A DNA stretch of 57,238 nucleotides, taken from Candidatus Endobugula sertula (lineage in GTDB: Bacteria; Pseudomonadota; Gammaproteobacteria; Pseudomonadales; Cellvibrionaceae). Under the pieces are notes generated by a model. That model did no database searches, was not told the DNA's origin, and saw only the letters and a program-made list of their open reading frames with translations. Position 1 is the stretch's first letter; each line of letters begins with the position of its first letter. Below, in pieces: positions 44,979-56,336 of the stretch. Made by a program: the position numbers and the translations under genes. The stretch is taken from assembly GCA_001723645.1 (NCBI GenBank), contig MDLC01000015.1, positions 1 through 57,238 of the forward strand, read 5' to 3'.

Positions 44979-46241
44979 CTATTGAGGAGCTATCTTATAC
45001 TGTGCCATATACCGCTTAATACTACCCAAACGTAACCGACGAATTTTCTCTGCTAATTTAAGGCCTTCATAGCCTTCACTTAGTAATGGCTTGATATTGG
45101 TATCTATAGCAACCTGGTTGTATTCGATTAACAATTGAGATTGAGGGTAATCTCTTTGCTCTAATCCTAAACGACCCCTAGCATCCGCTTCACAGGCTTG
45201 CGCAAAGTAACGTACACGTTCTGGTCGCCTGAACCCATCTAGTGCTTCCAATAGCTTTAATACCGATTTGGGACGCATTTCTAATAACTTATGACAACGT
45301 AAATGATGCTCTGACACTAGTTTTGCCAAGGTGCGAAAGTCTTTCGGTACTTTATAACACTCACATACTTTCTCAACTAAAGGTACACCTTTAATTTCAT
45401 GGCGAATATGACGAGGCCACTCTTCTTCAGGGGTAAGACCTTTACCCAAATCATGCATTAGTGCAGCCCAGGTCACGATTAGATCATCAAAACGCTCTCT
45501 GGCAATGTCCACGACCATCATCACATGATCACCCGTATCCACTTCTGGGTGATGCTGTGGGGGTTGCGGAACACCAAATAAACAGTCTAATTCTGGCATT
45601 AAAACCTCCAATGCACCACAGGCACGGAGCACTCGGAAAAACTCACTGGGCCGAGGCTCGGTTAATGCTCGAGACATTTCCTTCCAAACACGTTCCGGTG
45701 TTAATTCAGCAAGCTCGCCATTGTTAACCAAGTGCTTCATTAATTCTAATGTATTGGGATGCACTTGAAAATCTAACGTGGCATAACGTGCAGCAAAACG
45801 GGCTACTCTTAATACTCTCAATGGGTCATCAGAGAATGATTCTGAAACATGTCGTAAGACTTTATTATTTAAATCGGCTCTACCGTTAAACGGATCAACA
45901 TATTTACCTTCTAATGTCAGCGCAATGGCATTAATCGTAAGGTCTCTCCGAGATAGATCTTCTTCAAGTGTAACCTCGGGGCTAAAATCACAAACAAAGC
46001 CAGTGTGCCCCTTACCTGATTTTCTTTCAGTACGAGCGAGAGCATATTCATCCTTAGTTTCTGGGTGTAAAAAACAGGGAAAGTCGTTACCTATTTGTTG
46101 ATAGCCTTGCTCTATAAGCATTTCTGGAGTCGCACCGATGACTACCCAGTCATGATCTGCAACTGGGCGACCTAATAGCTTATCGCGTACCGCTCCACCG
46201 ACTAAATAAGCCTGAACACCAGTATTCTGTATATTTTCCAT
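44979..46241 (-). CDS. cca: Multifunctional CCA-adding enzyme (class II nucleotidyltransferase with HD domain)
   Basis: YLVGGAVRDKLLGRP..D.DWVV, ARTERK and RDLTINA, plus a C-terminal HD-domain region (LMHDLGK). 420 aa, like E. coli Cca. Confidence 0.92.
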   Translation of the reverse strand: MENIQNTGVQAYLVGGAVRDKLLGRPVADHDWVVIGATPEMLIEQGYQQIGNDFPCFLHPETKDEYALARTERKSGKGHTGFVCDFSPEVTLEEDLSRRDLTINAIALTLEGKYVDPFNGRADLNNKVLRHVSESFSDDPLRVLRVARFAARYATLDFQVHPNTLELMKHLVNNGELAELTPERVWKEMSRALTEPRPSEFFRVLRACGALEVLMPELDCLFGVPQPPQHHPEVDTGDHVMMVVDIARERFDDLIVTWAALMHDLGKGLTPEEEWPRHIRHEIKGVPLVEKVCECYKVPKDFRTLAKLVSEHHLRCHKLLEMRPKSVLKLLEALDGFRRPERVRYFAQACEADARGRLGLEQRDYPQSQLLIEYNQVAIDTNIKPLLSEGYEGLKLAEKIRRLRLGSIKRYMAQYKIAPQ

Positions 46242-46987
46242 TATATTGTTACGACTAAGTTCTCATTAAAGTTTGGGTTATAGCTATCTGGATAACCTCT
46301 TGGATTACAAATAATACGGCAGTTACCTATGGAGTAATCATAACTTTGGTGCAAATGACCGTGAATCCAAAGATTTGGACTGTACTCCAAAATAAAATCA
46401 TCTAAATCAGATACATAGGCAGCGCTCGTCATATCGCTTGCCTTTTTCTCTGAAAGAGACATTCTACTAGGGCCGTGGTGACTTATAACAACATTTTTAT
46501 ACCCTTTATAAGTGGTTAGTTCACGTTCAAGCCAATGAAGTGAATGTTTATGGATAATAGCCGTATCTATCGACCTTAATTTTGAGTACTTGGGAGAAAC
46601 TCGAATCTTCTTGTAGTCATTCATTATCTGTTGACAGTGAAAACCTGCAATCCGAGGATCGCCAAAAAGCTCAAAATCTGTCCATAATGTACAGCCAAAG
46701 AAATTAATATTACCTAAAGTAACCAACTCTTTTTCTAAAATATGAATGTTTGTGTCTTTAGCCATCGCTTTCATTTCATGAATATATTTCGGATACGCTT
46801 TACCGTAAAATTCATGGTTGCCTAGTACATATAAGACGGGTTTATCAGGTATATTTTTTAATGCCCACTCTATTCCTTTTCCTTTTACATGGATATCACC
46901 AGCAAGAATGACAATGTCACACTCCGGCAAGGTTAGTTCCAAATTAGCAAACTCTATATGTAGATCACTTAATATTAATAACTTCAC
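46241..46987 (-). CDS. Calcineurin-like metallophosphoesterase
   Basis: LSDLHIE, AGDI, GNHEFY, HHGP and GHLH motifs. The stop overlaps the cca start (TAATG). Confidence 0.85.
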   Translation of the reverse strand: MKLLILSDLHIEFANLELTLPECDIVILAGDIHVKGKGIEWALKNIPDKPVLYVLGNHEFYGKAYPKYIHEMKAMAKDTNIHILEKELVTLGNINFFGCTLWTDFELFGDPRIAGFHCQQIMNDYKKIRVSPKYSKLRSIDTAIIHKHSLHWLERELTTYKGYKNVVISHHGPSRMSLSEKKASDMTSAAYVSDLDDFILEYSPNLWIHGHLHQSYDYSIGNCRIICNPRGYPDSYNPNFNENLVVTI

Positions 46988-47052: not shown

Positions 47053-48207
47053 TTAAGCCTTTTTAGGGGCTAGAGTTACAAGCTCGTTAAGCACACCGCC
47101 TAAACCACCGTAAACAGAAATCTTATCGATTTGACCGGTAATTTTTTCGAGTGCTTCTAACTCTTTCAAGCGAAGCAATACTGGATTATTTTCCATCATC
47201 TTAGCAGTATTATGTAACGAACGCATAGCTTGAGTTTCCTCGCGGCGTTTGATCAAGTTAGCTTCAGCTTCTTTTTGTGCTTCAACCACTTGATTCAAGA
47301 TTTGCTTCATATCACCCGGCAAGATAATGTCTTTAACACCAACATTGACCAGCTCAATACCATAGTTAGCTAATTTTTCGCGAGTCGCTTGGGTAATCAC
47401 TGTGTTAAGTGTATCTTTATCTTCCAACAAAGTATCCAGTGATTGTGTACCCACCGCTTCACGCAGGCTTAACTGCAGCTCGCGATAGATAAAACCAGCA
47501 TAATCATTCACTTTTAAAGCGACGATTTCTGGATCTTTCACTTTATAGCTAGCGCTTAAGTTAATACGCAGGCTCACACGATCCTTTGTTAAAATTTTTT
47601 GACCACTTACCTCAACAGCTTGTAAGCGTAGATCTAATAGCTTAACACCAACAGAACGATTGTATTTCCAGAAGCCATAATTTCCAGGCTTTAAAATACT
47701 CTCGAGCTTACCATTAACGTTTAGAAGGCCGACGTGTTCATCTGGCACTTCTGCGTAAAGAATGGCATTAACTACTTCTCGGCTTTGACCTACTGTTAGG
47801 CCTCGACCTAGTAGATTAATCAACGACTTATCGATTTGGTAGTTCTCACTGATATCAATAATATCAACACGAACATCCTCTACATTTTTCCAAACGGTTA
47901 AAACAGAACCTGGTGCGAGCACACTAGCCAGCTTGTTATCTCGATACAGCAAACCGACTTCAGAGTCTTTAAGGTTAAACTGTTCAAGATAAGGTGCTAA
48001 TTTATCTGCATATTGAGTCATTAGGAACTGTGCTTTACGGTTCTTAAATAACACGTCGGTAATGTCATGAACGTCTACTGCCACTCGGCCTTGTGGGGTC
48101 GATACTCGGTGTCGACCTGGACCTAGTACACGTTTAAATTGATCACGCACATACAATAGAGCACGTTGATGATCAGCAATATCAATTGTCTTCCAGAAAA
48201 TCATCAT
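47053..48207 (-). CDS. SPFH/band-7 domain protein (slipin-like)
   Basis: 384 aa. A central SPFH-type region and a C-terminal coiled-coil QKEAEANLIKRREETQA. Confidence 0.85.
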   Translation of the reverse strand: MMIFWKTIDIADHQRALLYVRDQFKRVLGPGRHRVSTPQGRVAVDVHDITDVLFKNRKAQFLMTQYADKLAPYLEQFNLKDSEVGLLYRDNKLASVLAPGSVLTVWKNVEDVRVDIIDISENYQIDKSLINLLGRGLTVGQSREVVNAILYAEVPDEHVGLLNVNGKLESILKPGNYGFWKYNRSVGVKLLDLRLQAVEVSGQKILTKDRVSLRINLSASYKVKDPEIVALKVNDYAGFIYRELQLSLREAVGTQSLDTLLEDKDTLNTVITQATREKLANYGIELVNVGVKDIILPGDMKQILNQVVEAQKEAEANLIKRREETQAMRSLHNTAKMMENNPVLLRLKELEALEKITGQIDKISVYGGLGGVLNELVTLAPKKA

Positions 48208-48494
48208 TTTCTCCTTATAGCTGGCATCATAAAGATGCCTTTTATGAATAGGCGAGGCCCACTTGGTTTTAACGCGGTCGATAATTTGAATAGCCTAGGT
48301 CACTTATCTCAGCGGCTTGTTGCGCGGTTATCTTCACCCTGAAGAACAACATCCGTGTATGCTTTCCTTAGCGAATAACCGTGGTTCAAGCATAAAATAA
48401 TGACGTAAACGATTAACCCATCATCAACGGTATTAAAACCATTGCTAGCTAATCTATAGAAGCCTTAACCAGCAGTGAGCCTCTAGTGTTTTAT

Positions 48495-48541
48495 TGGTAA
48501 CAAACCAAGGGGATTCGAACCCCAGACTTTCGTCTTACCCA
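48495..48541 (-). other. tRNA 3'-half-like fragment (T-arm plus ..ACCA), no 5' half
   Basis: The minus strand reads TGGGTAAGACGAAAGTCTGGGGTTCGAATCCCCTTGGTTTGTTACCA. It directly abuts the CCA end of tRNA-Met. No complementary 5' acceptor strand was found. Confidence 0.45.
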
Positions 48542-48618
48542 TGGTGTTTTTGGCAGGATTCGAACCTGCTACCCATCGATTATGAATCGATTGCTCTACC
48601 CGTATGAGCTACAAAAAC
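48542..48618 (-). tRNA. tRNA with CAT anticodon (Met, or Ile if lysidine-modified), CCA encoded
   Basis: Hand fold: GTTTTTG TA GCTC ATACGGGTA GAGC A ATCGA TTCATAA TCGAT GGGTA GCAGG TTCGAAT CCTGC CAAAAAC A CCA. Confidence 0.85.
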
Positions 48619-48984
48619 CTATGCGTTGGAGGCATAGTTGTTTAGCGGGCTAGCGAATCGGTACACAGGACATTAAAAATGGCTGTGCCAGCCTGGCATA
48701 CGGAACCAGAGACACTGTTTCGTTAACTTGCGCATAAACATCGGTATGGAGTTAGACGCCAAAAAAGCGCCAAACTCCAAATACTTATCATCGAATATCG
48801 GAAACAACACTAAGGTGTTTGCCTTTTTCCTTATCGTACTCGGCAATTTCCATTTCTCCGTCAATTGGCGCTATTGTTACCAAATGATCAATTCGTGAAT
48901 ACATCTCTCCATGGTAGGCTTTTAGCTCGCCTTTTCCATTTTCATATCCTCATTGCTTATGAACTAAAGCCAATACAGTTTGGT

Positions 48985-49536
48985 TTAGCCACTCTTCCAT
49001 TTTCGTTGACTAGAAAATTGTTTAGTCAGATAGTCCATTTGATCGGCAATAATATGCCGATTAGTTAAATACAAATATTCAAAAGGATTCGGCGTAAACG
49101 GAACCGCTAATAAAAGCATATTTGCTTGTTCCGGTGTACGATTGCCTTTTGCATGATTGCAGCGCTTGCAGGCGGCCACGACATTTGTCCAACTATCGGC
49201 TCCACCTTGAGCACGCGGTACCACATGGTCACGGGTTAGTTCCTGTGCAAAAAATATTTGGCCGCAATATAAGCACACATAATTATCTCGACGAAATAAC
49301 ATAGCATTGCTAAATGAACGGACCTTCATACTTTTTCCGTGACCTTTAGTCGCAATCACTGGAGAAATATCAAGCATAGAACGTTCGCCATCGCGGTTGT
49401 AACCGCCCCGCATTAAGGCACCTTGTTCACCCATTTCCCACAGCACAAGTTTTTTGCTGTAAAGGGTTGTAGCAGCCTCCACTAATAGCCAATGCATCGG
49501 CATACCAGAGGGATTTAGGCGTAGTACTTTTTTCAT
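48985..49536 (-). CDS. HNH endonuclease
   Basis: CLYCG...TRDHVVPRAQGG..SW.NVVAACKRCNHAKGNRTP is a classic HNH-Cys4 motif. 183 aa. Confidence 0.88.
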   Translation of the reverse strand: MKKVLRLNPSGMPMHWLLVEAATTLYSKKLVLWEMGEQGALMRGGYNRDGERSMLDISPVIATKGHGKSMKVRSFSNAMLFRRDNYVCLYCGQIFFAQELTRDHVVPRAQGGADSWTNVVAACKRCNHAKGNRTPEQANMLLLAVPFTPNPFEYLYLTNRHIIADQMDYLTKQFSSQRKWKSG

Positions 49537-49578
49537 TACCTTGCGCCAAAAAATAAATCCATATGTGAATACACCAGC

Positions 49579-49875
49579 CTAATAGTATTTAATAAAGTTC
49601 ATACCATCAGCCGAGCGATAACCATTTGTTTCTAACAAATGGATCATCGCTTGTCGTTTTTGTAATTGCCTTTCTGTAACAACTACATAAAGCGGCATCA
49701 ATTGTTGATGGAGTGCCCATGTCAACAATTGGTGCCCATTTTCGCGACCAACTAAATAGTGATCCACATATAGCTGGGTTACACTATTTTTAAGCAATTG
49801 CTTTTTTGCTTTTCTTGCATCGTCACAGAAAACATCTGCGAAACGGTTTTGATTTTTGCTAACAGATAAACGCAT
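49579..49875 (-). CDS. Hypothetical protein inside the tRNA array
   Basis: 98-aa ORF, 33 nt downstream of tRNA-His. No family recognised. Confidence 0.45.
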   Translation of the reverse strand: MRLSVSKNQNRFADVFCDDARKAKKQLLKNSVTQLYVDHYLVGRENGHQLLTWALHQQLMPLYVVVTERQLQKRQAMIHLLETNGYRSADGMNFIKYY

Positions 49876-49908
49876 AATCCCTCCTGTGAGCTAGTGAGAA
49901 TATTTAGG

Positions 49909-49980
49909 GGTGACCGATGGGACTCGAACCCATATATACTTGAGCCACATTCAAGCGCATTACCGATCTGCCACGGCCAC
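49909..49980 (-). tRNA. tRNA-His (GTG), no encoded CCA (CCT) and no G-1
   Basis: Hand fold: GTGGCCG TG GCAG ATCGGTA ATGC G CTTGA ATGTGGC TCAAG TATAT ATGGG TTCGAGT CCCAT CGGTCAC C. Followed by CCT, and position -1 is T. Confidence 0.75.
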
Positions 49981-50011
49981 ACCTAAATATTCTGGGTAAT
50001 AAGAAATAATT

Positions 50012-50086
50012 TGGTCCGCCCGGTAGGATTTGAACCCACACCTGTCGGCTTAAAAGGCCGATGCGCTACCATTACGCCACGAACGG
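50012..50086 (-). tRNA. tRNA-Lys (TTT), CCA encoded
   Basis: Hand fold: CCGTTCG TG GCGT AATGGTA GCGC A TCGGC CTTTTAA GCCGA CAGGT GTGGG TTCAAAT CCTAC CGGGCGG A CCA. Confidence 0.85.
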
Positions 50087-50091
50087 AAAAT

Positions 50092-50170
50092 TGGCACCTG
50101 ACACAGGACTCGAACCTGCATCTCCCCGCTTCGTAGGCGGGTGCTCTAAATCCAATTGAGCTAATCAGGC
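50092..50170 (-). tRNA. tRNA-Arg (ACG), CCA encoded
   Basis: Hand fold: GCCTGAT TA GCTC AATTGGATTTA GAGC A CCCGC CTACGAA GCGGG GAGAT GCAGG TTCGAGT CCTGT GTCAGGT G CCA. Confidence 0.85.
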
Positions 50171-50176
50171 AAAATT

Positions 50177-50250
50177 TGGAGCCCAATACAGGACTCGAAC
50201 CTGTCTCTACTGCTTACAAGGCAGTTGCACAGCCGCTATGCCAATCGGGC
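50177..50250 (-). tRNA. tRNA-Thr (TGT), CCA encoded
   Basis: Hand fold: GCCCGAT TG GCAT AGCGGCT GTGC A ACTGC CTTGTAA GCAGT AGAG ACAGG TTCGAGT CCTGT ATTGGGC T CCA. Confidence 0.85.
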
Positions 50251-50290
50251 AAGTTAAGAAATTTTGTGAAATAAAAGACTGGAATCCTTT

Positions 50291-51487
50291 CTAGCCTTTT
50301 ACGTTGACGATTTGACGAAGCGTATGAACAACGTCAACAAGATCAGTTTGGTTATCCATAACATCATCAATTGGCTTATACGCCATGGGAATCTCATCGA
50401 TTACACCTTTGTCTTTACGGCATTCAATCCCCTCTGTTGCAGATACAAGATCACTTACAGAATAGGTTTTTGCAGCCGCAGTTCGACTTAGGCGACGTCC
50501 AGCGCCGTGAGAGCAAGAACAGAACGATTCTGATTCACCTTTACCACGAACAATAAAACTTTTATCGCCCATAGACCCAGGAATAATACCCAAATCATCT
50601 TTTCTTGCGCGGATAGCGCCTTTACGTGTAACCCATACGTTTTTACCAAAATGGTTTTCCTTTTCCACATAGTTATGATGACAATTGATGGCTTCTTGAG
50701 TGACCGCAAACGCTGGAAGATGTTTACGTAGCTCCATCATCACTGCATTCATCATATGTGTACGATTCAATGCAGCATAATCTTGCCCCCAAGATACTGC
50801 TTCGATGTAATCATCGTAATATTCTGATCCTTCAGATAGATAAGCCAAATCTTTATCGGGCAAATGGATCATCCATTTTTCCATTTCACGTTTCGCGATC
50901 TCGATAAAATGCATTCCAATTTTATTACCGATACCACGGCTTCCTGAATGCAGCATAATCCATACGTCTTGATTTTCATCCAAACACAACTCGATAAAGT
51001 GATTCCCTGAACCTAGCGTACCTAACTGCTTTGCAAAGGCATCATACTTAATACGTTTACTTATTTGAGGATGCTTCTCGAAGATAGTACTTAAACGCAT
51101 TGAAATATCATGGCCACCTGCAATTTTAGGGTCACGATGTTTTCCGCCTGCCCCCAAAGGCACAACAGATTCAATACGACTGCGAATAGCTTTCAAATTA
51201 TCAGGCAGATCTTTTGCCTTTAGCGATAGACGCACGGCATTCATACCACAACCAATATCCACGCCTACTGCAGCAGGGATAATCGCTTTATCGGTCGCGA
51301 TTACTGAACCCACAGTCGCTCCTTTACCCAAATGAACATCTGGCATTGCTGCTACATGTTTATAGACAAAGGGTAAATTCGCTACTCGGCTTAATTGTGC
51401 CTGTGTGTTGTAATCAATATCATCTGTCCAGATTTTTACAGGCACACGCTGATCTTTATGCGTTGCCAATACTTTTTTAATGGTCAT
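50291..51487 (-). CDS. rtcB: RNA ligase RtcB embedded in the tRNA array
   Basis: MPDVHLGKG, GVDIGCGM, GSGNHFIELC, HSGSRGIGN, HNY and HGAGR motifs. 398 aa. Lies 30 nt downstream of an oversized tRNA-like gene and 40 nt upstream of tRNA-Thr. Confidence 0.95.
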   Translation of the reverse strand: MTIKKVLATHKDQRVPVKIWTDDIDYNTQAQLSRVANLPFVYKHVAAMPDVHLGKGATVGSVIATDKAIIPAAVGVDIGCGMNAVRLSLKAKDLPDNLKAIRSRIESVVPLGAGGKHRDPKIAGGHDISMRLSTIFEKHPQISKRIKYDAFAKQLGTLGSGNHFIELCLDENQDVWIMLHSGSRGIGNKIGMHFIEIAKREMEKWMIHLPDKDLAYLSEGSEYYDDYIEAVSWGQDYAALNRTHMMNAVMMELRKHLPAFAVTQEAINCHHNYVEKENHFGKNVWVTRKGAIRARKDDLGIIPGSMGDKSFIVRGKGESESFCSCSHGAGRRLSRTAAAKTYSVSDLVSATEGIECRKDKGVIDEIPMAYKPIDDVMDNQTDLVDVVHTLRQIVNVKG

Positions 51488-51517
51488 AATTGCCTCCTTT
51501 AGTTATTTTATAATGAC

Positions 51518-51658
51518 TGGTTGGAGGTATAGGAATAACCTAAGCGCGTCCTGCGCTTAGCCTTTCAGATGCAAAGCAGTTCAAAATGCTCCCGGCATTT
51601 TGTCGAACCCATCTCGCCGGGGCAAAAACCCGGTGCTCAGCCACTAAGCCAACCTCCA
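51518..51658 (-). tRNA. Oversized (141 nt) tRNA-like gene with a 74-nt T-loop. The 7-nt anticodon loop reads TTTTTGC (UUU). CCA encoded.
   Basis: Hand fold: TGGAGGT TG GCT TAGTGGCTG AGC A CCGGG TTTTTGC CCCGG CGAG ATGGG [TTCGA CAAAATGC-CGGGA-GCATTTTG AACTGCTTTGCATCTGAAAGG CTAAGCGC-AGGAC-GCGCTTAG GTTATT] CCTAT ACCTCCA A CCA. Acceptor pairs 7/7 and T-stem 5/5. Confidence 0.6.
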
Positions 51659-51668
51659 GTTAAGTAAT

Positions 51669-51818
51669 TGGAGCGATGTATGGGAATCGAACCCATTTCC
51701 TCTGCTTGGACTGCTTTGCAGGAGCAAAAGCAGGACATCATGTAGTGGTGGTTGCGAAGCAATTGTGTATAGGGATATACACAACAACGCAGGTACCTCA
51801 CCATTCGGTTAACATCGC
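51669..51818 (-). tRNA. Oversized (150 nt) tRNA-like gene with an ~80-90 nt insertion in the anticodon arm. Anticodon undetermined. CCA encoded.
   Basis: 5' part: GCGATGT TA ACC GAATGGTGA GGT A CCTGC. 3' part: GCAGA GGAA ATGGG TTCGATT CCCAT ACATCGC T CCA. Acceptor pairs 7/7. The insert holds the hairpins TTGTGTATA-TCCC-TATACACAA and CTGCTTTTGC-TCCT-GCAAAGCAG. Confidence 0.55.
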
Positions 51819-51824
51819 ATAAAT

Positions 51825-51902
51825 TGGTCTGGGTGGTAGGGTTTGAACCTACGACCTTTGGGTTCCAAACCCAACACGCTAACCAAACTGCGCTACACCC
51901 AG
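51825..51902 (-). tRNA. tRNA-Pro (TGG), CCA encoded
   Basis: Hand fold: CTGGGTG TA GCGC AGTTTGGTTA GCGT G TTGGG TTTGGAA CCCAA AGGTC GTAGG TTCAAAC CCTAC CACCCAG A CCA. Confidence 0.9.
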
Positions 51903-51910
51903 AATAAATT

Positions 51911-52052
51911 TGGCGGTTCATACCACTTCCCATAAATAGAGAGGGAACCGGTGATCTCTCGGCTTATTCACATGAATGTAATGTATGCCGATTTTGCAGG
52001 AGCAAAAATCGGTGACAACCGAGCGCATTAAACCTGACTATGCTAATGAACC
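51911..52052 (-). tRNA. Oversized (142 nt) tRNA-Asp(GTC)-like gene with a 49-nt insertion after the anticodon loop and an expanded T-loop. CCA encoded.
   Basis: Hand fold: GGTTCAT TA GCAT AGTCAGGTTTA ATGC G CTCGG TTGTCAC [CGATTTTTGC-TCCT-GCAAAATCGG CATACATTACATTCATGTGAATAAG] CCGAG AGATC ACCGG [TTCCC TCTCTATTTAT GGGAA] GTGGT ATGAACC G CCA. Acceptor pairs 7/7. Confidence 0.6.
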
Positions 52053-52057
52053 TTAAT

Positions 52058-52133
52058 TGGTGGAGACCGTGGGAATCGAACCCACCACACAGTGCTTGCA
52101 AAGCATCGTCGCCCCCTTGATACATGGGCCCCC
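52058..52133 (-). tRNA. tRNA-Ala (TGC) with G3:U70, a poorly paired D-arm, CCA encoded
   Basis: Hand fold: GGGGGCC CA TGTATCAAGGGGGCGAC GATGC TTTGCAA GCACT GTGTG GTGGG TTCGATT CCCAC GGTCTCC A CCA. The G3-T70 wobble is present. No convincing D-stem. Confidence 0.7.
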
Positions 52134-52138
52134 AATTT

Positions 52139-52293
52139 TGGAGTGCGAGGCTGGGTGAAAGAAGTGTTGTTAGCAAAGCACTGCTTTGTACTTCTTGAAC
52201 GCCCAAAACTTATAATTTTTGGCCGGCCCGCTTGCGGCAAACCAGCGTATACGGAGGTTGCAGCTCCGCGCATCGTCTCTCTGCCACTCGCAC
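52139..52293 (-). tRNA. Oversized (155 nt) tRNA-Cys(GCA)-like gene with an 87-nt T-loop. U73, CCA encoded.
   Basis: Hand fold: GTGCGAG TG GCAG AGAGACG ATGC G CGGAG CTGCAAC CTCCG TATAC GCTGG [87 nt, including AAGAAGT..ACTTCTT and AAAGC-AGT-GCTTT hairpins] CCAGC CTCGCAC T CCA. Acceptor, anticodon and T stems all pair perfectly. Confidence 0.6.
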
Positions 52294-52310
52294 AAAATAG
52301 TTATTCAGAT

Positions 52311-52384
52311 TGGCAACAGCGTCAGGATTCGAACCTGGAATACCGGAGTCAAAGTCCAGTGTGTTACCGTTACACCACGCTGCT
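52311..52384 (-). tRNA. tRNA-Gln (TTG), G73, CCA encoded
   Basis: Hand fold: AGCAGCG TG GTGT AACGGTA ACAC A CTGGA CTTTGAC TCCGG TATT CCAGG TTCGAAT CCTGA CGCTGTT G CCA. One T-stem mismatch. Confidence 0.8.
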
Positions 52385-52392
52385 ATATTTTT

Positions 52393-52481
52393 TGGTCGTG
52401 AGGAGCGGGTTTGAACTCTCGCAGCACTCTTGTTACTGTGCGGATTAGCAATCCGCTGCCTTACCACTCGGCCACATTTCC
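52393..52481 (-). tRNA. tRNA-Ser(GCT)-like, probably defective (acceptor and T stems do not pair)
   Basis: Type II D-arm GCCGAGTGGTAAGGC, anticodon arm GCGGA TTGCTAA TCCGC, and a long variable arm. The 5' strand GGAAATG pairs at only 3 of 7 positions with CCTCACG, and the T-stem GAGAG/CCGCT is poor. Confidence 0.5.
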
Positions 52482-52487
52482 AATAAT

Positions 52488-52629
52488 TGGTTGCGGTGGC
52501 TGGAATAACCAAAGTACTTTCTGTACTTTGCTCTGCGAGTGCTTCGCTGCTCAAAATGCTCCAGGCATTTTGTCGAACCAACAAGTTCGGGCATATGAAA
52601 CCCGCGAGTAGCCATAGCTCAACACCGCT
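52488..52629 (-). tRNA. Oversized (142 nt) initiator-like tRNA (CAT) with the same 74-nt T-loop architecture as 51518..51658. CCA encoded.
   Basis: Hand fold: AGCGGTG TT GAGC TATGGCT A CTC G CGGGT TTCATAT GCCCG AACTT GTTGG [TTCGA CAAAATGC-CTGGA-GCATTTTG AGCAGCGAAGCACTCGCAGAG CAAAGTAC-AGAAA-GTACTTTG GTTATT] CCAGC CACCGCA A CCA. There is a 1:72 A-A mismatch, and the 3' end CCGCAACCA resembles remembered E. coli tRNA-fMet. Confidence 0.6.
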
Positions 52630-52640
52630 TCAAATAGTAG

Positions 52641-52715
52641 TAGGCCAAGGCGGATTCGAACCGCTCCTTATCCCGCTTATGAGGCGGGTGCATTCACCGA
52701 TTATGCTATTGGCCT
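52641..52715 (-). tRNA. tRNA with CAT anticodon (Met/Ile2 type), no CCA encoded
   Basis: Hand fold: AGGCCAA TA GCAT AATCGGTGA ATGC A CCCGC CTCATAA GCGGG ATAAGG AGCGG TTCGAAT CCGCC TTGGCCT A. Followed by CTA. Confidence 0.75.
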
Positions 52716-52725
52716 AATTTAAAAT

Positions 52726-52809
52726 TGGTGTAGGCAGATGGAGTTGAACCACCAAAGCTTTCGCGACCGGGTTACAACCGGCTAGAGTCACCACGTCTCT
52801 TCTGTGTAC
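52726..52809 (-). tRNA. tRNA-Tyr (GTA), type II, with two central acceptor mismatches. CCA encoded.
   Basis: Hand fold: GTACACA GA AGAG ACGTGGTGA CTCT A GCCGG TTGTAAC CCGGT CGCGAAAGCTTT GGTGG TTCAACT CCATC TGCCTAC A CCA. An alternative 5' strand GCAGGTA (to 52813) pairs 6/7 but leaves a 6-nt connector. Confidence 0.65.
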
Positions 52810-52818
52810 CTGCATAAT

Positions 52819-52895
52819 TGGCTCCGGCAGTTGGGATCGAACCAACGAACTCCTGATTAACAGTCAGGCGCATTACCACTCTGCTTCACACCGGA
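52819..52895 (-). tRNA. tRNA-Asn (GTT), CCA encoded
   Basis: Hand fold: TCCGGTG TGAAGCAGAGTGGTAATGC G CCTGA CTGTTAA TCAGG AGTTC GTTGG TTCGATC CCAAC TGCCGGA G CCA. The D-stem is shifted (GCA/TGC). Confidence 0.8.
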
Positions 52896-52902
52896 ATAAA
52901 AT

Positions 52903-52979
52903 TGGTACAGTGAGCTGGACTCGAACCAGCACTCTCCTGATCTTCAATCAAGCGCTCTACCAATTGGAGCTATCACTGC
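52903..52979 (-). tRNA. tRNA-Phe (GAA), CCA encoded
   Basis: Hand fold: GCAGTGA TA GCTC CAATTGGTA GAGC G CTTGA TTGAAGA TCAGG AGAGT GCTGG TTCGAGT CCAGC TCACTGT A CCA. Confidence 0.9.
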
Positions 52980-52987: not shown

Positions 52988-53173
52988 TTGGCACGCGGTG
53001 AAAGAAAAGTATCAAACCTCATCGAGGAGTGGAACGACAGCAATAAAATTGATCCTGAACGGCTAGAAGACCAGCTCACACCAGAGCGTTATAGGGCGCT
53101 ATTTGATACCCTCGTAGATTGGAATGACTATCTTGACAACCATGCACCGGATATCAAGGAGTTGTTGCTATGA
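52988..53173 (+). CDS. Small hypothetical protein upstream of mobC (start uncertain, TTG)
   Basis: The part of track ORF 52910..53173 that lies outside tRNA-Phe. Its stop overlaps the mobC-like start (ATGA). Confidence 0.3.
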   Translation: MARGERKVSNLIEEWNDSNKIDPERLEDQLTPERYRALFDTLVDWNDYLDNHAPDIKELLL

Positions 53174-53598
53174 ACAATTCTGCGAACCTCAAACAAGCGT
53201 TTGAAACCTCTAGCGCTCAAAATACCATCAAACCTAAAAAGCAGTATGCACGAACATTTTCTATGCGTCTTACGGATGGTGAACGTGATTTCTTAGACCA
53301 GCATAGCGGCTCTTTGTCATGGTCTGGCTATATCCGCAAGCGTGTCTTTGGTGAAAAAGCCGAAAAACGTCGCCCTGTAAAACGAGCTGTGCCAGATACG
53401 GCGCTACTAGCTCAAGTTCTCGCAGAGCTAGGCGCTTCCCGTTTATCTGCCAATATCAACCAACTGGCAAAACACGCCAATATGGGAACGCTGGACGTTT
53501 CGCCTGAAACTGAGCGCGAGATTGAAAGCGCCTGCCGTGAAATCCATACCCTGCGTATGCTGTTGATTGCTGCCTTGGGTGTTCAGCCAGAGGATTAG
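53170..53598 (+). CDS. MobC-like relaxosome accessory protein
   Basis: RHH-like N-terminal part (FSMRLTDGERDFL) and the ELGASRLSANINQLAKHANMG motif typical of MobC-family mobilisation proteins. Immediately upstream of the relaxase. Confidence 0.8.
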   Translation: MNNSANLKQAFETSSAQNTIKPKKQYARTFSMRLTDGERDFLDQHSGSLSWSGYIRKRVFGEKAEKRRPVKRAVPDTALLAQVLAELGASRLSANINQLAKHANMGTLDVSPETEREIESACREIHTLRMLLIAALGVQPED

Positions 53599-53600
53599 AG

Positions 53601-54734
53601 ATGATATTGCACGGCAATCAACGCGGCGGCGCTAAAGATATGGCGCTTCATCTTATGAAAGATGAAAACGAACATATTGAGGTGTACGAGATCAGAGGCT
53701 TTGCTTCTGAAAACCTCATAGGGGCTTTTAACGAAGCCTATGCCATTAGCCGCGCCACACGTTGTAAGCAATTCCTATACTCTCTAAGCTTAAACCCGCC
53801 ACCGGATGAGCAGGTATCTACTGAAAGCTTTAAAAAAGCCATTAATCAGGCTGAACAACGGCTAGGGCTGGATAATCAGCCCCGCGTTATTGTTTTCCAT
53901 GAAAAGCAGGGGCGTAGGCATTGCCATGTTGTCTGGTCACGAATTGATAGCTCTGAATTAAAGGCCATACGGCTTCCTTTTACCAAGTTGAAATTACGGG
54001 AGTTATCCCGCGAATTATTCCTAGAGCATGGCTGGGCTATGCCCGAAGGTTTGCGGGATTCCCACAACCGTGACCCGCGTAATTTTACCTTGGCAGAATG
54101 GCAGCAAGCCAAACGCACAGGCAAGAACCCCAAGCAGGTTAAGGCCGTATTCCAAGAATGCTGGAATATTAGCGATACACAAAGCGCTTTTGCCAATGCC
54201 CTAAAAGAGCATGGTTATATCTTGGCGCGTGGTGATCGGCGCGGCTTTGTTGCGGTGGATTTTAAAGGTGAAGCTTTCGCCGTGTCTAAATGGGTTGGCA
54301 TTAAAGCAAAAGACGTTAAAGCCAAACTCAACGAAGCGGATAAGTTGCTTCCATTTGCAGACGCTAAAGCACACATGGCAAATGCTATGGCGGCAACATT
54401 GCAAAAGGCTCAAGAGCAGCAAAATACCGCTATTCGTGAGCGCCAAAATCAGCTTGAGGCAAGACTTGAAGCCATGGCCATGCAACATAAGCAAGAACGC
54501 CAAAATCTGGAACAAACACAAGATATACGCCGTATTGAAGAAACCAAAACCCGCCAAGCCAGATACAGCAAAGGCTTACGAGGCCTATGGCAACGCCTGG
54601 ATAAGTTCAGGGAACAGGGGCAAAAGCATATCACTCAAGACATACAACAATACCGCGAAATCCAACAACATAAGCGGGATACGTTCAGCATGACAGACCC
54701 ACAAAAACATAGGGGTAGAGGGCTTGAGCGTTAA
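53601..54734 (+). CDS. Relaxase / mobilisation nuclease (MobA/VirD2-type)
   Basis: N-terminal relaxase domain with HCHVVWSRI (His-triad region), then a long Q/E-rich coiled-coil tail. 377 aa. Confidence 0.88.
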   Translation: MILHGNQRGGAKDMALHLMKDENEHIEVYEIRGFASENLIGAFNEAYAISRATRCKQFLYSLSLNPPPDEQVSTESFKKAINQAEQRLGLDNQPRVIVFHEKQGRRHCHVVWSRIDSSELKAIRLPFTKLKLRELSRELFLEHGWAMPEGLRDSHNRDPRNFTLAEWQQAKRTGKNPKQVKAVFQECWNISDTQSAFANALKEHGYILARGDRRGFVAVDFKGEAFAVSKWVGIKAKDVKAKLNEADKLLPFADAKAHMANAMAATLQKAQEQQNTAIRERQNQLEARLEAMAMQHKQERQNLEQTQDIRRIEETKTRQARYSKGLRGLWQRLDKFREQGQKHITQDIQQYREIQQHKRDTFSMTDPQKHRGRGLER

Positions 54735-54822
54735 TTAATTGGTTAAATTTGACTCAAACAGCAAAAAAGTTGTATGCTTAAACATATATGTGTTTATACG
54801 CTTATTTATAGAGGTAACTATC

Positions 54823-55059
54823 ATGACACGTTGGAGTCTTGTTGTTAATAACGAAACCGATCAAAGCTTACGTGCTTTTCTGGGTCAGAAAGGTGCGAAA
54901 AAAGGTGATTTATCCAAATTCGTAGAAGAAGCCGTACTGGATAAATTACTGGCTGAAACAGCAGAAATGATTAAAGAGCGTAATGCTGCCGATGATCAAA
55001 TGAATATTATGAGTACAGTAAATGAAGCATTAGAGGCTGTACGTGCGCATAGTTCTTGA
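54823..55059 (+). CDS. Ribbon-helix-helix antitoxin
   Basis: An RBS gaggt precedes ATG 54823. 78 aa with an MTRWSLVVNNETDQSLRAFL beta-strand start. Its end overlaps the PIN gene. Confidence 0.7.
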   Translation: MTRWSLVVNNETDQSLRAFLGQKGAKKGDLSKFVEEAVLDKLLAETAEMIKERNAADDQMNIMSTVNEALEAVRAHSS

Positions 55060-55459
55060 TACAGGCATTTTAGTTAGCGCATTAATCACCAAAGATACGC
55101 CGCCTGATTGGTTGTACCAATCATGGTGTAAACAAGCCTTTACGCTTGTCACCTCTGAAGAGCAACTGGAAGAAATAAAGCGTGTACTGTCTTATAAAAA
55201 GCTCGAACGTTTTATCAATCAGTCCGAAGCACAAATTCTGCTAGAAGCTCTCCACCGAAAAGCAGATATTGCAACAGACCTACCTTTTGTTGAACTATCA
55301 CCTGACCCTGATGATAACCGTATTATTGCCACGGCGCTGGCTGGGCAAGCGGATTATCTGGTATCAGGCGATAAGGCGGATTTATTGAGCCTTGGCATGG
55401 CTCATGATATTCCCATTCTTACTGCTCGGCAGATGGCAGAACGCTTGAAACTGGGTTAA
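55043..55459 (+). CDS. PIN-domain toxin
   Basis: IVLDTGILVSALI (the first acidic residue), D...D in DPDDNRIIATA and SGD. 138 aa, GTG start. Confidence 0.8.
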   Translation: MRIVLDTGILVSALITKDTPPDWLYQSWCKQAFTLVTSEEQLEEIKRVLSYKKLERFINQSEAQILLEALHRKADIATDLPFVELSPDPDDNRIIATALAGQADYLVSGDKADLLSLGMAHDIPILTARQMAERLKLG

Positions 55460-55475
55460 ATAACAAAGCCATTTA

Positions 55476-56027: not shown

Positions 56028-56147
56028 TATACGACCTCTGATAACCTCTACGATTAAATCATGATGATATTGATGCCAAAAAAGTGGCTAGTTACACCTT
56101 AGCTGAGAGTAACAAAATAAGTGAACAAAGACGACGATAAGAGGAAC

Positions 56148-56336
56148 CTAAAATGAGGTATTAGGTACTTTTTTAATATAATCACGAACGGCGATGAGTA
56201 TAGGGCTTAGATCTTCGTCTTTGCTATGAATCATCTTCAAAACCGTATCCTCGCTATCGGCTAGATCACAAAGCATAGAGCCATACATTTTCATGTAGCT
56301 GCGGTATTTGCGTTTAAGCTGTGCTGGTGTTGTCAT
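56148..56336 (-). CDS. Small hypothetical protein downstream of the resolvase
   Basis: ORF from an internal ATG (MTTPAQLKRKY...). Overlaps the resolvase 3' end. Confidence 0.35.
   Translation of the reverse strand: MTTPAQLKRKYRSYMKMYGSMLCDLADSEDTVLKMIHSKDEDLSPILIAVRDYIKKVPNTSF

Follow-up and report, generated by a model that had tools for sequence, protein, structure and literature searches.

Long tRNA arrays (L-arrays) that spread horizontally were described in 2021 (PMC8421152). They are induced by translational stress and possess a conserved, linked HNH gene as well as a neighboring or co-regulated rtcB (PMC8421152). L-arrays are reported to be mostly silent or cryptic, 3 of the 26 members of the Anabaena L-array are pseudogenes, and a sponge role has been proposed for L-array tRNAs (PMC8421152). 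Ribosome repair by PrfH-RtcB2 is described in a separate report (PMC9304027). Two plasmids offer further comparisons. The Variovorax RA8 plasmid carries 15 tRNAs, a PF09414 RNA ligase, 2 tRNAs, an ORF, 6 tRNAs, and an HNH homolog. This layout is the same as in Candidatus Endobugula sertula and the HNH proteins are orthologous; however, the Variovorax ligase is ATP-dependent and is not RtcB. On the Tolypothrix PCC 7910 plasmid, a homolog of the E. sertula HNH protein is followed by 16 tRNAs.

The 57,238-nucleotide window analyzed here is a contig from the chromosome of the uncultured symbiont Candidatus Endobugula sertula. In it, 18 tRNA(-like) genes form an accessory array that is combined with genes for an RtcB RNA ligase, for an HNH nuclease, and for further RNA- and ribosome-repair functions. 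The author of the original prediction was not aware of such an arrangement having been described as a unit. As L-arrays with HNH and rtcB are already published (PMC8421152), this kind of unit is known, and the reading of tRNA supply plus repair is reasonable and not new.

Composition of the Array

Across the 57 kb, the only canonical tRNAs that ARAGORN detects are 12 minus-strand genes lying within 48542-52979. Ten of them also match the Rfam tRNA model (47-70 bits); tRNA-Tyr and tRNA-Ala are found by ARAGORN only, the latter having just a sub-threshold tmRNA match in Rfam (27.5 bits). Apart from a module termed 'Met2' (see below), the canonical members are:

52903-52979, minus strand: tRNA-Phe-GAA (ARAGORN; Rfam, 47-62 bits for Phe, Asn, and Met1)
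52819-52895, minus strand: tRNA-Asn-GTT (ARAGORN; Rfam, same range)
52726-52809, minus strand: tRNA-Tyr-GTA (ARAGORN only)
52640-52715, minus strand: Met1-CAT, no encoded CCA (ARAGORN; Rfam, same range)
52311-52384, minus strand: tRNA-Gln-TTG (ARAGORN, Rfam)
52058-52132, minus strand: tRNA-Ala-TGC with the G3:U70 identity pair (ARAGORN; sequence reading)
51825-51902, minus strand: tRNA-Pro-TGG (ARAGORN; Rfam, 70 bits)
50177-50250, minus strand: tRNA-Thr-TGT (ARAGORN, Rfam)
50092-50170, minus strand: tRNA-Arg-ACG (ARAGORN, Rfam)
50012-50086, minus strand: tRNA-Lys-TTT (ARAGORN, Rfam)
49907-49980, minus strand: tRNA-His-GTG, 3' end ..CCC, no full CCA (ARAGORN, Rfam)

Identity elements are retained in the canonical members (e.g., G3:U70 in Ala and G-1 in His). 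Spacers between Phe, Asn, Tyr, and Met1 measure 7, 9, and 10 nt, and the array yielded no convincing candidate for a promoter or a terminator, with promoter-like matches below shuffled expectation. The remaining members are five interrupted genes (X1-X5) and one deletion chimera ('Ser'), such that tiny insertion elements and the chimera structurally disrupt 6 of the 18 genes, or one third.

The 18 tRNA(-like) genes and one 'half' that the original prediction placed on the minus strand are recovered to the base as the 12 ARAGORN tRNAs, 'Ser', X1-X5, and, for the 'half', a T-arm minihelix, and the rtcB, 98-aa ORF, and HNH genes are embedded among them as it claimed. Measured coordinates also agree with its spacers of 5-17 nt in the 51.5-53.0 kb block, with rtcB lying 30 nt past X5 and ending 40 nt before tRNA-Thr, and with the 98-aa ORF following closely on tRNA-His (31 nt from its ARAGORN end). 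Its hand-read anticodons are correct, the one 'undetermined' member being Gly-UCC, whose anticodon loop is disrupted. With regard to integrity, 12 members are canonical, and the disruption of the other six had been missed.

Disrupted Members

X1-X5 retain intact acceptor stems, an encoded CCA, and recognizable anticodons (CAT, Cys-GCA, Asp-GTC, Gly-TCC, and UUU, respectively); they contain structured inserts of 49-85 nt in T-loops or anticodon loops.

52488-52628, minus strand: X1, a CAT tRNA with its T-loop (TTCGA..TT) split by a 67-nt family-A' element at 52506-52572
52393-52481, minus strand: 'Ser-GCT' pseudogene, a chimera (Rfam only, a weak 30.5 bits)
52139-52293, minus strand: X2, tRNA-Cys-GCA with its T-loop split by an 85-nt family-B element at 52155-52239
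51911-52052, minus strand: X3, tRNA-Asp-GTC with two insertions
51669-51818, minus strand: X4, tRNA-Gly-TCC, split immediately 5' of its anticodon by a 76-nt family-A element (51711-51786)
51518-51658, minus strand: X5, a UUU tRNA with its T-loop split by a 67-nt family-A' element at 51536-51602

Deletion of one segment in silico yields an end-to-end ARAGORN tRNA for X1 (tRNA-Met), X2 (tRNA-Cys), X4 (tRNA-Gly(tcc), on exact excision), and X5 (tRNA-Lys). X3 is called tRNA-Asp only if both of its insertions are deleted, namely a 49-nt family-C unit 3' of the anticodon loop (51963-52011) and ~14 additional nt in the T-loop. A control deletion scan of 40 random 145-nt segments of the window gave no tRNA calls. 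Against model R1, the X4 element scores 84.9 bits (E = 4e-16) on the plus strand, which is its structured strand, and is thus in reverse orientation; the X3 family-C hairpin also matches on the plus strand, antisense to its tRNA (P1, 20.4 bits), and the X5 and X1 inserts score 15.9 bits and a weak 7.3 bits. Orthologs without the insert are present in a related locus, L003, for X1 (9125-9199), X4 (9814-9887), and X5 (9896-9969), the last with compensatory changes in the acceptor and anticodon stems. The anticodon loop of X5 is intact but unusual (UUUUUGC, with G37). The family-B element of X2 also occurs in the T-loop of tRNA-Glu in locus L006, with compensatory stem changes, and the L006 Cys gene has no insert.

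The 'Ser-GCT' pseudogene joins the 5' two-thirds of a tRNA-Ser to 3'-terminal sequence (..CTCCTCACGACCA) from a CAT tRNA of the CGTGAGG type. Its acceptor and T stems are unpaired, and ARAGORN makes no call on it, even with in-silico deletions. At this site, L003 has Ser, Leu, Leu, Leu, and Met.

The Surrounding Island

The array stands in a conserved chromosomal RNA-repair island that extends to its left as far as ~42.4 kb, an extent that the original prediction had overlooked, and comprises the following:

50291-51487, minus strand: rtcB, 398 aa, 3'-phosphate/5'-hydroxyl RNA ligase (Pfam RtcB, 433 bits, full model)
49579-49875, minus strand: AB835_05865, 98-aa stand-alone cREC-type receiver-like protein (PF20274, synteny)
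48985-49536, minus strand: HNH endonuclease, 183 aa, with a family-specific N-terminal region and HNH_5 at residues 88-141 (Pfam)
48476-48749, minus strand: conserved structured RNA region (alignment of 7-8 loci, RNAalifold)
within 48476-48749, minus strand: upstream domain with covarying stems (RNAalifold)
48542-48618, minus strand: tRNA-like module 'Met2', CAT, part of the structured RNA region (ARAGORN)
48495-48541, minus strand: T-arm minihelix, conserved, part of the structured RNA region
47053-48207, minus strand: SPFH/Band-7 protein, 384 aa (Pfam)
46241-46987, minus strand: calcineurin-like metallophosphoesterase (Pfam, context)
44979-46241, minus strand: multifunctional CCA-adding/repair enzyme (NCBIfam NF008137, 609 bits; cut-off 451)
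43138-44373, minus strand: RtcB2 (TIGR03073, 438 bits; cut-off 271.8)
42452-43135, minus strand: PrfH (TIGR03072, 209 bits; cut-off 166.65)

The rtcB gene is preceded by a strong Shine-Dalgarno sequence (AAGGAGG), and its homologs in Cellvibrionaceae are 79-93% identical. AB835_05865 itself scores 20.6 bits against PF20274, under the cut-off of 27; 10 of 12 orthologs match (best E = 1.3e-5), and in synteny comparisons no other partner accompanies this rtcB as constantly as this family. In the structured RNA region, 21 of 54 pairs show compensatory changes across 7-8 loci (RNAalifold). The anticodon and CCA of 'Met2' vary in relatives, and the 'half' of the original prediction is the T-arm minihelix, for which the multi-locus alignment rules out a chance match. 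Band-7 is linked to this RtcB clade, including in RtcR-controlled operons (loci L016, L065, and L066), and the window has no RtcR gene. The CCA-adding enzyme gene of L003 is followed by that of an RlaP nucleotidyltransferase. RtcB2 and PrfH are, as judged by their family matches, a ribosome rescue/repair pair. The island adjoins housekeeping genes, among them RNase PH and the cox operon.

The 5' Edge and the Mob Module

52989-53010, minus strand: remnant at the array 5' edge (comparison with L003 Trp and the family-B ends of X2 and L006 Glu)
53170-53598, plus strand: MobC-like protein (Pfam)
53601-54734, plus strand: MobA/VirD2 relaxase (Pfam)

The remnant combines the terminal ~13 nt of a family-B insert (..ACTTTTCTTTCAC) with a tRNA-Trp 3' terminus (CGCGTGCCA), and is likely the truncation point beside the Mob module; the tRNA-Trp reading is only likely because the match is short. 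A native leader of ~1 kb, conserved in relatives, is missing here and the MobC/relaxase block takes its place. This module is absent from all related loci compared. Since it adjoins the truncated tRNA-Trp remnant and stands in for the leader, the Mob genes are a separate mobile module, outside the array unit, whose insertion cut the array. The original argument that the array is mobile because of flanking mobility genes is therefore not supported. Downstream of the relaxase are RHH-PIN, a CxxCxxCC protein, and a resolvase; this nearby PIN toxin belongs to the Mob module, and no tRNA-cleaving toxin emerged as the trigger.

Conservation Among Relatives

Among the loci compared for synteny (L003-L013), at least six related genomes show the order array, rtcB, ~98-aa ORF, (HNH), tRNA-like RNA, Band-7, and their flanks differ. 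Together with the Variovorax layout and the CCA-adding enzyme and RtcB2-PrfH in the island, this supports the predicted functional unit of array, ligase, and HNH, the part of the original interpretation that stands, unlike its arguments from novelty and mobility genes. Cellvibrionaceae relatives have the same island, but the tRNA content at the orthologous place ranges from 0 to at least 16 (0 upstream of rtcB in L008, 1 in L010, 2 in L005, and 12-16 in L003, L006, and L007). The array is therefore accessory and not merely a set of the only tRNA copies. Relatives' arrays also contain a truncated Gln, a degenerate Pro, and a doubly interrupted Phe. This decay and the disruption of 6 of the 18 genes here suggest that the array may be under weak selection, whereas compensatory stem substitutions in orthologs indicate selection on folding. 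In Endozoicomonas, Aliiglaciecola, and Agarilytica, this RtcB clade adjoins RtcR, Band-7, RlaP, and tRNA-like RNA, and in the first two it occurs without an array. At the start of Rtc-type operons in relatives are tRNA-like RNAs whose anticodon loops are non-standard.

Interpretation

At the DNA level, the inserts behave like miniature mobile elements: they occur in two orientations, orthologs have precise empty sites, and copies lie outside arrays. They are small and rich in hairpins, and their insertion sites in tRNA loops follow T(T/A)NGA. An alternative is that they are introns, cut from pre-tRNA by a putative endoribonuclease leaving 2',3'-cyclic-phosphate/5'-OH ends, with the exons joined by the adjacent RtcB; if true, this would amount to protein-dependent tRNA splicing in a bacterium, with mini-introns that are mobile. 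The inserts do lie in tRNA loops between intact exons, and their exact excision gives canonical tRNAs. Their structure is strong, with covariation at 19 of 26 pairs; a large excess of G.U pairs over A.C mismatches indicates selection on one strand, and most copies are in sense orientation. In the Cellvibrionaceae loci sampled they are confined to arrays adjoining rtcB, and one Agarilytica copy sits between rtcB and rtcA. However, of the four family A/C-type elements that the window contains, two (X4 and the X3 hairpin) are antisense to their own tRNA, the hairpin unit also appears as REP-like intergenic repeats and nested inside other repeats, and copies exist in genomes or loci without rtcB or HNH nearby. 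Near housekeeping tRNA/tmRNA genes the element is found only in downstream partial duplicates and never splits the functional gene, suggesting that insertion is harmful. Long-standing insert-bearing genes have damaging exon changes (e.g., C61 to A in L007 Arg), the inserts match no Rfam intron or ribozyme family, and no splicing endonuclease was found among the scanned ORFs. Splicing sealed by RtcB is thus unlikely, and markedly so.

For the locus as a whole, we lean toward an accessory, horizontally variable array of the L-array type built into an island for the RNA damage response on the Candidatus Endobugula sertula chromosome, a reading only somewhat likelier right than wrong. The array could instead be cryptic, decaying selfish cargo, an L-array remnant kept by horizontal transfer and the HNH homing nuclease that contributes little or nothing here, with the repair genes serving host RNAs independently. 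This is possible, if on the doubtful side: the six disrupted members, the Mob module in place of the 5' end and leader, the fast gene turnover and pseudogenes in relatives, the mostly silent state of L-arrays with their Anabaena pseudogenes (PMC8421152), and an RtcB clade that works without an array in Endozoicomonas and Aliiglaciecola all fit it. It is opposed by the 12 members with canonical structure and identity elements (10 at 47-70 bits in Rfam), the compensatory substitutions among orthologs, the recurrence of the array-ligase-HNH layout with a non-orthologous ligase, and the presence of a CCA-adding enzyme where some array tRNAs lack CCA. It is improbable that service as nuclease bait or as sensor ligands of the repair system, and not decoding, is the main role of the tRNA(-like) genes, among them the interrupted members and the tRNA-like RNA ahead of Band-7. 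The tRNA-like RNAs that open relatives' operons, the changing anticodon and CCA of Met2-like modules, the X5 loop, and the published sponge proposal (PMC8421152) speak for such a role, but most intact members resemble ordinary decodable tRNAs with encoded CCA, the window lacks RtcR, and bait and decoder look alike computationally. An ordinary core operon holding the genome's housekeeping copies is hardly credible. Its chromosomal location beside RNase PH and the cox operon would suit one, but array presence, size, and content vary widely among genomes whose RtcB is 85-92% identical, flanks vary too, one third of the genes are disrupted, and the array lies within a repair island that includes HNH.

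Under the favored reading of an accessory array within a damage-response island, the sequence suggests an anti-toxin role, co-transcription as a polycistron, and a candidate substrate for each protein. When anticodon nucleases, other ribotoxins, or translational stress damage the translation apparatus, the additional tRNAs would replace, or serve as decoys for, cleaved housekeeping tRNAs. RtcB, probably helped by the small cREC-like protein and the phosphoesterase, would reseal tRNA halves with 2',3'-cyclic-phosphate/5'-OH ends. The CCA-adding enzyme would rebuild 3' CCA ends, which two array tRNAs do not encode in full, and ribosomes whose 16S rRNA has been cut would be rescued and religated by PrfH-RtcB2. 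For the HNH enzyme, the most likely role is that of a DNA nuclease for homing or maintenance, carried along with arrays of this type, and the conserved tRNA-like RNA upstream of Band-7 would belong to the ancestral Rtc-type operon. The present array copy is partly decayed, with five interrupted members, one deletion chimera, and a 5' end and native leader lost to the Mob/relaxase module.

Composition of the tRNA Array

The locus holds 18 tRNA or tRNA-like genes and a "half", which is a T-arm minihelix (48495-48541), all on the minus strand; this count, made in the original prediction, holds under ARAGORN, Rfam and a deletion scan. Twelve members are canonical tRNAs according to ARAGORN and lie between 48542 and 52979 on the minus strand, with none called in the other ~52 kb of the window. 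Ten of the twelve also score 47-70 bits with the Rfam tRNA model; Tyr and Ala are ARAGORN calls only, Ala appearing in Rfam as a sub-threshold tmRNA match. An extra weak Rfam tRNA match (30.5 bits) is located at 52406-52481. Five further genes, termed X1-X5, came to light when spacers of more than 100 nt were read. Extra sequence is present in all five, yet each retains a paired acceptor stem, a recognisable anticodon arm, and a discriminator base followed by CCA.

Insert-bearing tRNA genes of the window
52488-52628, minus strand: X1, anticodon CAT, insert at 52506-52572
52139-52293, minus strand: X2, Cys-GCA, insert at 52155-52239
51911-52052, minus strand: X3, Asp-GTC, insert at 51963-52011
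51669-51818, minus strand: X4, Gly-TCC, insert at 51711-51786
51518-51658, minus strand: X5, anticodon UUU, insert at 51536-51602

When all possible single deletions of each X gene were submitted to ARAGORN, X1, X2, and X5 each yielded an end-to-end tRNA after a single deletion, X4 did so upon exact removal of its insert, and X3 only with two deletions; 40 random 145-nt segments of the window, used as a control, gave 0 tRNA calls. The gene read as "tRNA-Ser" (52393-52481) is a deletion chimera: it begins as tRNA-Ser and finishes with the 3' end of a CAT tRNA, which in the related Cellvibrionaceae locus L003 lies four genes downstream. The deletion runs between the T-arms of these two genes and has removed three short tRNA-Leu genes that are still present in L003. 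This analysis of the non-canonical members resolves the window array into 12 intact genes, five disrupted by insertion, and one chimera. The anticodons originally read by hand were correct, and the one member left without an assignment is Gly-UCC.

All 18 genes share one orientation and are close enough for co-transcription; in the main block, neighbours are only 5-17 nt apart, as first described. The ligase gene rtcB begins 30 nt past X5 and ends 40 nt before tRNA-Thr, and a 98-aa open reading frame directly follows tRNA-His, starting 31 nt past it. Judging from this spacing, co-transcription of the array is plausible; a promoter and terminator scan of the array found none above shuffled expectation. 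Published L-arrays have 26-43 genes, so that an array with 12 intact members is a short one. At orthologous loci, the number of tRNAs at the same place ranges from 0 to 16 or more, so that the array can be regarded as accessory and its genes as dispensable. Its distribution is patchy: the flanking genes differ in L003, L004, L005, L007, L008, and L010, and array content is variable.

The relatives' arrays also contain other unusual members. Genes called as tRNA-Leu are only 77-78 nt long (anticodons TAA, TAG, and CAA; L003 9299-9543, L007 5496-5654, L005 9718-9794) and are without the long variable arm of bacterial leucine tRNAs. A tRNA-Pro-like gene is degenerate and contains another insert type in its anticodon region, ..AAAATACATCCAAGTATTTTGCCCTTCGGG.. 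(L003 9700-9800, L006 5660-5800, L007 5745-5880), and the tRNA-Gln of L003 is cut off after the anticodon arm.

Insert Families in tRNA Loops

Related loci were collected via RtcB homologues and their contigs. Among them are insert-free orthologues of X1 (L003 Met, 9125-9199), X2 (L006 Cys), X4 (L003 Gly, 9814-9887), and X5 (L003 Lys, 9896-9969), and conversely, several genes of relatives (Phe, Arg-ACG, Tyr, His, Leu, and Glu) bear inserts where the window genes are clean. These pairs of orthologues establish that the inserts are presence/absence polymorphisms whose empty sites are precise and which have duplicated no target sequence. They are hairpin-rich elements of 49-85 nt that belong to at least three families and occupy T-, anticodon- and D-loops in the window and in the L003, L004, L006, and L007 arrays. 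They are inserted directly 3' of T(T/A)NGA or ..CGA, in both orientations, and interrupt about a quarter of array genes per genome, so that standard finders under-count array tRNAs.

Family A elements are about 75 nt long, begin directly after T(T/A)NGA, and fold into four hairpins, the first and last of which have GGA-containing loops. In a 10-copy alignment, 19 of the 26 pairs display compensatory changes, and G.U pairs greatly outnumber A.C mismatches, which argues that one strand of the element is under structural selection. The X4 insert scores 84.9 bits with R1, the covariance model of this family, on the plus strand and hence antisense to the tRNA; those of X1 and X5 match it on the sense strand at only 7 and 16 bits, respectively, and are distantly related. 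Family B occupies the T-loop of X2 and again that of a tRNA-Glu in L006. Family C, found in X3, is the reverse complement of a REP-like unit consisting of a short conserved stretch and a family-A-type hairpin, which is also present upstream of the L003 array, nested within a different repeat of L006, and behind terminators of other Gammaproteobacteria. GGA loops are found on the terminal hairpins of elements, and several of these hairpins (e.g., CACAAGGAUGUG) resemble the CsrA-binding consensus and are candidate CsrA sites only.

The X5 insert contains a 22-nt hairpin (51581-51602), CAAAATGCCGGGAGCATTTTGA, and three long-stem repeats scattered over a GC-rich metagenome contig include the identical sequence (L062 752-773; L063 3397-3418 and 13659-13680). 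A metagenome scan with the X1/X5 hairpin returned no more tRNA insertions, only these three repeats and one unrelated site.

One genome per species was scanned for the family A hairpin, and matches were filtered with R1. Genuine copies are present in Agarilytica (between rtcB and rtcA), in two Zetaproteobacteria, and in several gammaproteobacterial MAGs. In these housekeeping contexts, a functional tRNA or tmRNA is never interrupted. Instead, the non-array copies consist of a partial duplicate ending in GGTTCGA, then the element, then a copy of the tRNA or tmRNA 3' end, and these units, some of them tandemly arranged, come after the intact gene and its terminator (L023 5919-6193, L026 4478-4827, L031 430-503, L039 1390-1469). 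The arrangement resembles that of the tRNA-linked repeats (RtT) of the E. coli tyrT locus. The GC-rich L031 copy weakly matches the Rfam family AaHKsRNA22 (RF02902; 32.6 bits against a gathering score of 39.8), which has the same four-hairpin layout as the family A element; the window copies gave no AaHKsRNA22 match in Rfam. Viral contigs contained one exact hairpin match, which at 12.1 bits with R1 is not confirmed as an element.

Mobile DNA Elements or Introns

Comparison of these sequences provides evidence for the inserts being small non-autonomous DNA elements. They are seen in both orientations, copies exist beyond the arrays and far from rtcB or HNH genes, functional housekeeping genes are spared, and exons have decayed in long-interrupted genes (e.g., C61 to A in the L007 Arg gene, and the doubly hit Phe genes). 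When junctions are set against empty orthologous sites, the inserts have the characters of IS200/IS605- or REP-type elements: like REP/REPIN sequences, IS200/IS605-derived PATEs, and tRNA-linked repeats, they are without target duplication or terminal inverted repeats, lie 3' of a short, fixed and specific motif, and contain subterminal hairpins, P1 and P4, with a strand-specific structure. They also resemble such small repeats in having copies after terminators and duplicated tRNA 3' ends. On the other hand, no transposase is seen for the window inserts, as neither an HUH (Y1) transposase nor a RAYT was found among the scanned window ORFs, and the E. coli tyrT RtT gives only 18 bits. Literature searches on T-loop insertions or tRNA-linked repeats returned nothing relevant and gave no description of elements that directly interrupt tRNA loops in about 25-30% of the genes of an array.

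The inserts could also be mobile mini-intervening sequences, with a nuclease cutting the pre-tRNA and the adjacent RtcB joining the exons. Exons that are intact, loops that serve as insertion sites, strand-specific structure, and the confinement of elements to arrays in the Cellvibrionaceae loci sampled are all consistent with splicing, which would be the first case of protein-dependent tRNA splicing known from bacteria and would provide a natural substrate explaining the position of RtcB inside the array. Antisense copies speak against a protein-spliced tRNA intron of the archaeal or eukaryal kind, no EndA-like domain was detected among 40 window ORFs scanned with Pfam, and splicing is considered highly improbable. 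Group I introns were rejected, since the inserts are 49-85 nt long and mostly in the T-loop, compared with a catalytic core of about 200 nt or more in the anticodon loop. Rfam searches of the array at permissive thresholds (E ≤ 1 to 5) assigned the inserts to no family, be it an intron such as Intron_gpI, a ribozyme, a Y-RNA, or any other. A G|TT cassette junction of the integron type fails to recreate the sequence of the empty sites.

Genes of the Island and Their Surroundings

The window is a contig of Candidatus Endobugula sertula, and its left two-thirds is ordinary chromosome (RNase PH, cox operon, transporters). On the minus strand, the array is followed by rtcB, four tRNAs, the gene for a cREC-like 98-aa protein, an HNH gene, a structured RNA that includes the CAT module Met2 (48542-48618) and the T-arm minihelix, and then genes for Band-7, a metallophosphoesterase, a CCA-adding/repair enzyme, RtcB2, and PrfH. 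The rtcB product has a full-length RtcB domain (PF01139, 433 bits, model positions 1-426) and the metal- and GMP-binding motifs GVDIGCG, GSGNHF, HSGSRG, CHHN, and SHGAGR; it thus has the defining features of RtcB 3'-P/5'-OH RNA ligases, and this activity is predicted for it. The 98-aa protein (AB835_05865) scores 20.6 bits with PF20274, below the cut-off of 27; the domain is detected in 10 of its 12 orthologues at E ≤ 0.01 (best 1.3e-5) and is a precomputed match in three database homologues. The HNH protein has tblastn homologues on Nostoc, Tolypothrix, and Acaryochloris plasmids, in which only the HNH domain aligns, and in Tolypothrix PCC 7910 a run of 16 tRNAs directly follows the HNH gene. 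In the window, the genes next downstream of the array block, in the same orientation (42452-46987), are those for the calcineurin-like phosphoesterase, the multifunctional CCA-adding enzyme, and RtcB2-PrfH. RtcB2 (TIGR03073, 438 bits, cut-off 271.8) and PrfH (TIGR03072, 209 bits, cut-off 166.65) are encoded by adjacent genes with 2 bp between them, as in the ribosome repair module.

Several further genes accompany the relatives' loci. In L003, an RlaP nucleotidyltransferase gene comes after the CCA-adding enzyme gene. The array tRNAs of L004 enclose a further translation-rescue component, a small gene resembling arfA, which encodes alternative ribosome rescue factor A (9162-9302, Pfam match), with similar ORFs in L005 (~9480-9640) and L007 (~4667-4813). 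In L006, a reverse-transcriptase (RVT_1) gene directly follows the Band-7 gene (10635-12416). Between HNH and the conserved RNA, window positions 48640-48985 match the location of a 119-aa ORF in L004, L007, and L008, and only short interrupted reading frames are left there.

The structured RNA (~48476-48749, minus strand) is directly upstream of the Band-7 gene and is composed of a covarying-stem domain, a tRNA-like module, and the T-arm minihelix. It is conserved with covarying stems in all related loci and is also present in RtcR-type operons (counterparts at L003 ~12830-13140, L016 ~5600-5950, and L065 ~2650-2790), and its anticodon and CCA vary between species. No Rfam family matches it. 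The conserved block preceding the tRNA-like RNA is unlikely to contain a sigma-54 promoter, as TTGC is missing at -12 and the region forms covarying stems. By analogy, the RNA may correspond to the tRNA-like Y RNAs of rsr-rtcBA operons. More distant RtcB homologues (about 68% identity) are encoded in operons with rtcR and the order tRNA-like RNA, band7, (rlaP), rtcB, without arrays. The core of Band-7, RtcB, and tRNA-like RNA is therefore taken as ancestral, and the array, cREC, and HNH genes as additions in the Cellvibrionaceae lineage.

To the right of the array, a Mob module (53170-56937) encodes MobC, a relaxase, an RHH-PIN toxin-antitoxin pair, a CxxCxxCC protein, and a resolvase. At the array edge (52989-53173), only what are probably the last nucleotides of a family B element and of tRNA-Trp are left. 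Related arrays have a conserved upstream leader of ~1 kb, which the window lacks. The Mob module was inserted later, cutting the array short and replacing its native leader, and is not the vehicle of the array. The Mob flank has no match in the plasmid collection, and the plasmid and phage collections contain no close DNA relatives of the array, only rtcB and single tRNAs at 65-85% identity.

Comparison with Known Systems

The arrangement, originally thought to be undescribed, is an L-array of a published kind, exemplified by the trn operon of Anabaena PCC 7120 with its HNH gene all8564 and co-regulated rtcB (Santamaria-Gomez et al., 2021, PMC8421152). Of the initial interpretation, the unit and its repair logic stand; the claim of novelty and the argument from mobility do not. 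As in L-arrays, tRNAs, here probably supernumerary, form a tight, patchily distributed same-strand array with frequent insertions, deletions, and pseudogenes, a linked HNH gene encodes a homologous HNH domain (43-49% identity), rtcB is nearby, and the proposed role is survival of translation damage. Unlike L-arrays, the window array is gammaproteobacterial and chromosomal, has 12 intact genes only, includes rtcB and the cREC-like gene within it, is fused to Band-7, CCA enzyme, phosphoesterase, and RtcB2-PrfH genes, and has members full of small structured insertion elements.

Plasmid 3 of Variovorax sp. RA8 (NZ_LR594664.1) has the order tRNAs, RNA ligase, tRNAs, small ORF, tRNAs, HNH, and its HNH protein is a full-length orthologue (about 41% identity over 94% of the query); similar megaplasmids occur in Variovorax, Polaromonas, Burkholderia, and Methylibium. 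In contrast to the window, this array is plasmid-borne, its ligase is not RtcB but an ATP-dependent PF09414 enzyme, 23/23 tRNAs are called canonical, and the annotation of the examined stretch includes no Band-7, CCA or PrfH block. The co-occurrence of the same HNH family, an array, and an embedded ATP-dependent RNA ligase independently supports a coupling of arrays to ligation.

Hughes and colleagues reportedly described, in 2020, an RtcR-controlled rsr-yrlBA-rtcBA operon with tRNA-like Y RNAs in Salmonella. RtcR-controlled Rtc operons resemble the present locus in joining an RtcB ligase to tRNA-like non-coding RNAs, and the nearest non-array relatives of the window RtcB sit in rtcR-type operons. 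However, the window has no rtcR, rtcA, or rsr, its tRNA-like RNA has no YrlA match in Rfam, and real decodable tRNAs are numerous. Phage T4 has a tRNA region with SegB and repairs PrrC-cut tRNA-Lys by Pnk/Rnl1, and jumbo phages carry RtcB. Phage tRNA clusters thus likewise unite spare tRNAs, an RNA ligase, and a nuclease targeting tRNA genes, and jumbo-phage RtcB genes are detectable homologues of the window RtcB, but phage genes are absent from the window, the phage and plasmid collections hold no close DNA match, and an HNH search of viral contigs gave only a 16-residue match. Burroughs and Aravind are said to have surveyed RNA-repair systems in 2016, the island being of the type surveyed there. 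In E. coli, RtcB2-PrfH is a ribosome repair module (PMC9304027, PMC9223846). The same pair is found here above NCBIfam equivalog cut-offs, though as an island neighbour and not a stand-alone operon, its link to the array being positional only. Particular to this locus are the in-array rtcB and cREC-like gene, the fusion with Band-7, CCA enzyme, and RtcB2-PrfH genes, the gammaproteobacterial and chromosomal setting, and the loop-targeting mini-elements in about 25-30% of array genes.

Proposed Role of the Island

The physical unit that recurs is one of spare tRNAs with an RNA ligase and an HNH nuclease, adjoined by CCA-repair and ribosome-repair genes. The role proposed here draws on the known activities of RtcB, the CCA-adding enzyme, and PrfH-RtcB2, and on the Anabaena L-array study (PMC8421152). 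Upon ribotoxin attack or translational stress, the island would replenish tRNAs or supply decoys, religate cleaved tRNAs, rebuild CCA ends, and rescue cut ribosomes. The HNH protein is most simply viewed, by analogy, as a homing or maintenance DNA nuclease travelling with arrays, for which SegB of phage T4 is a precedent (PMC8421152).

What makes the locus interesting is chiefly its insertion elements and its conserved tRNA-like RNA, not the association of array and ligase as such. The elements show that tRNA loops are favoured insertion sites, and they may be tolerated either because array genes are dispensable or because the RNA is repaired. Since finders under-count (ARAGORN called 12/18 here), array tRNA counts are not functional counts. 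If the role proposed here is correct, one island combines spare tRNAs and a tRNA ligase with CCA repair and ribosome religation, the L-array concept reaches from cyanobacteria to marine Gammaproteobacteria, and the locus shows the extent to which translation defence may be consolidated in a bryostatin-producing symbiont and its free-living relatives.
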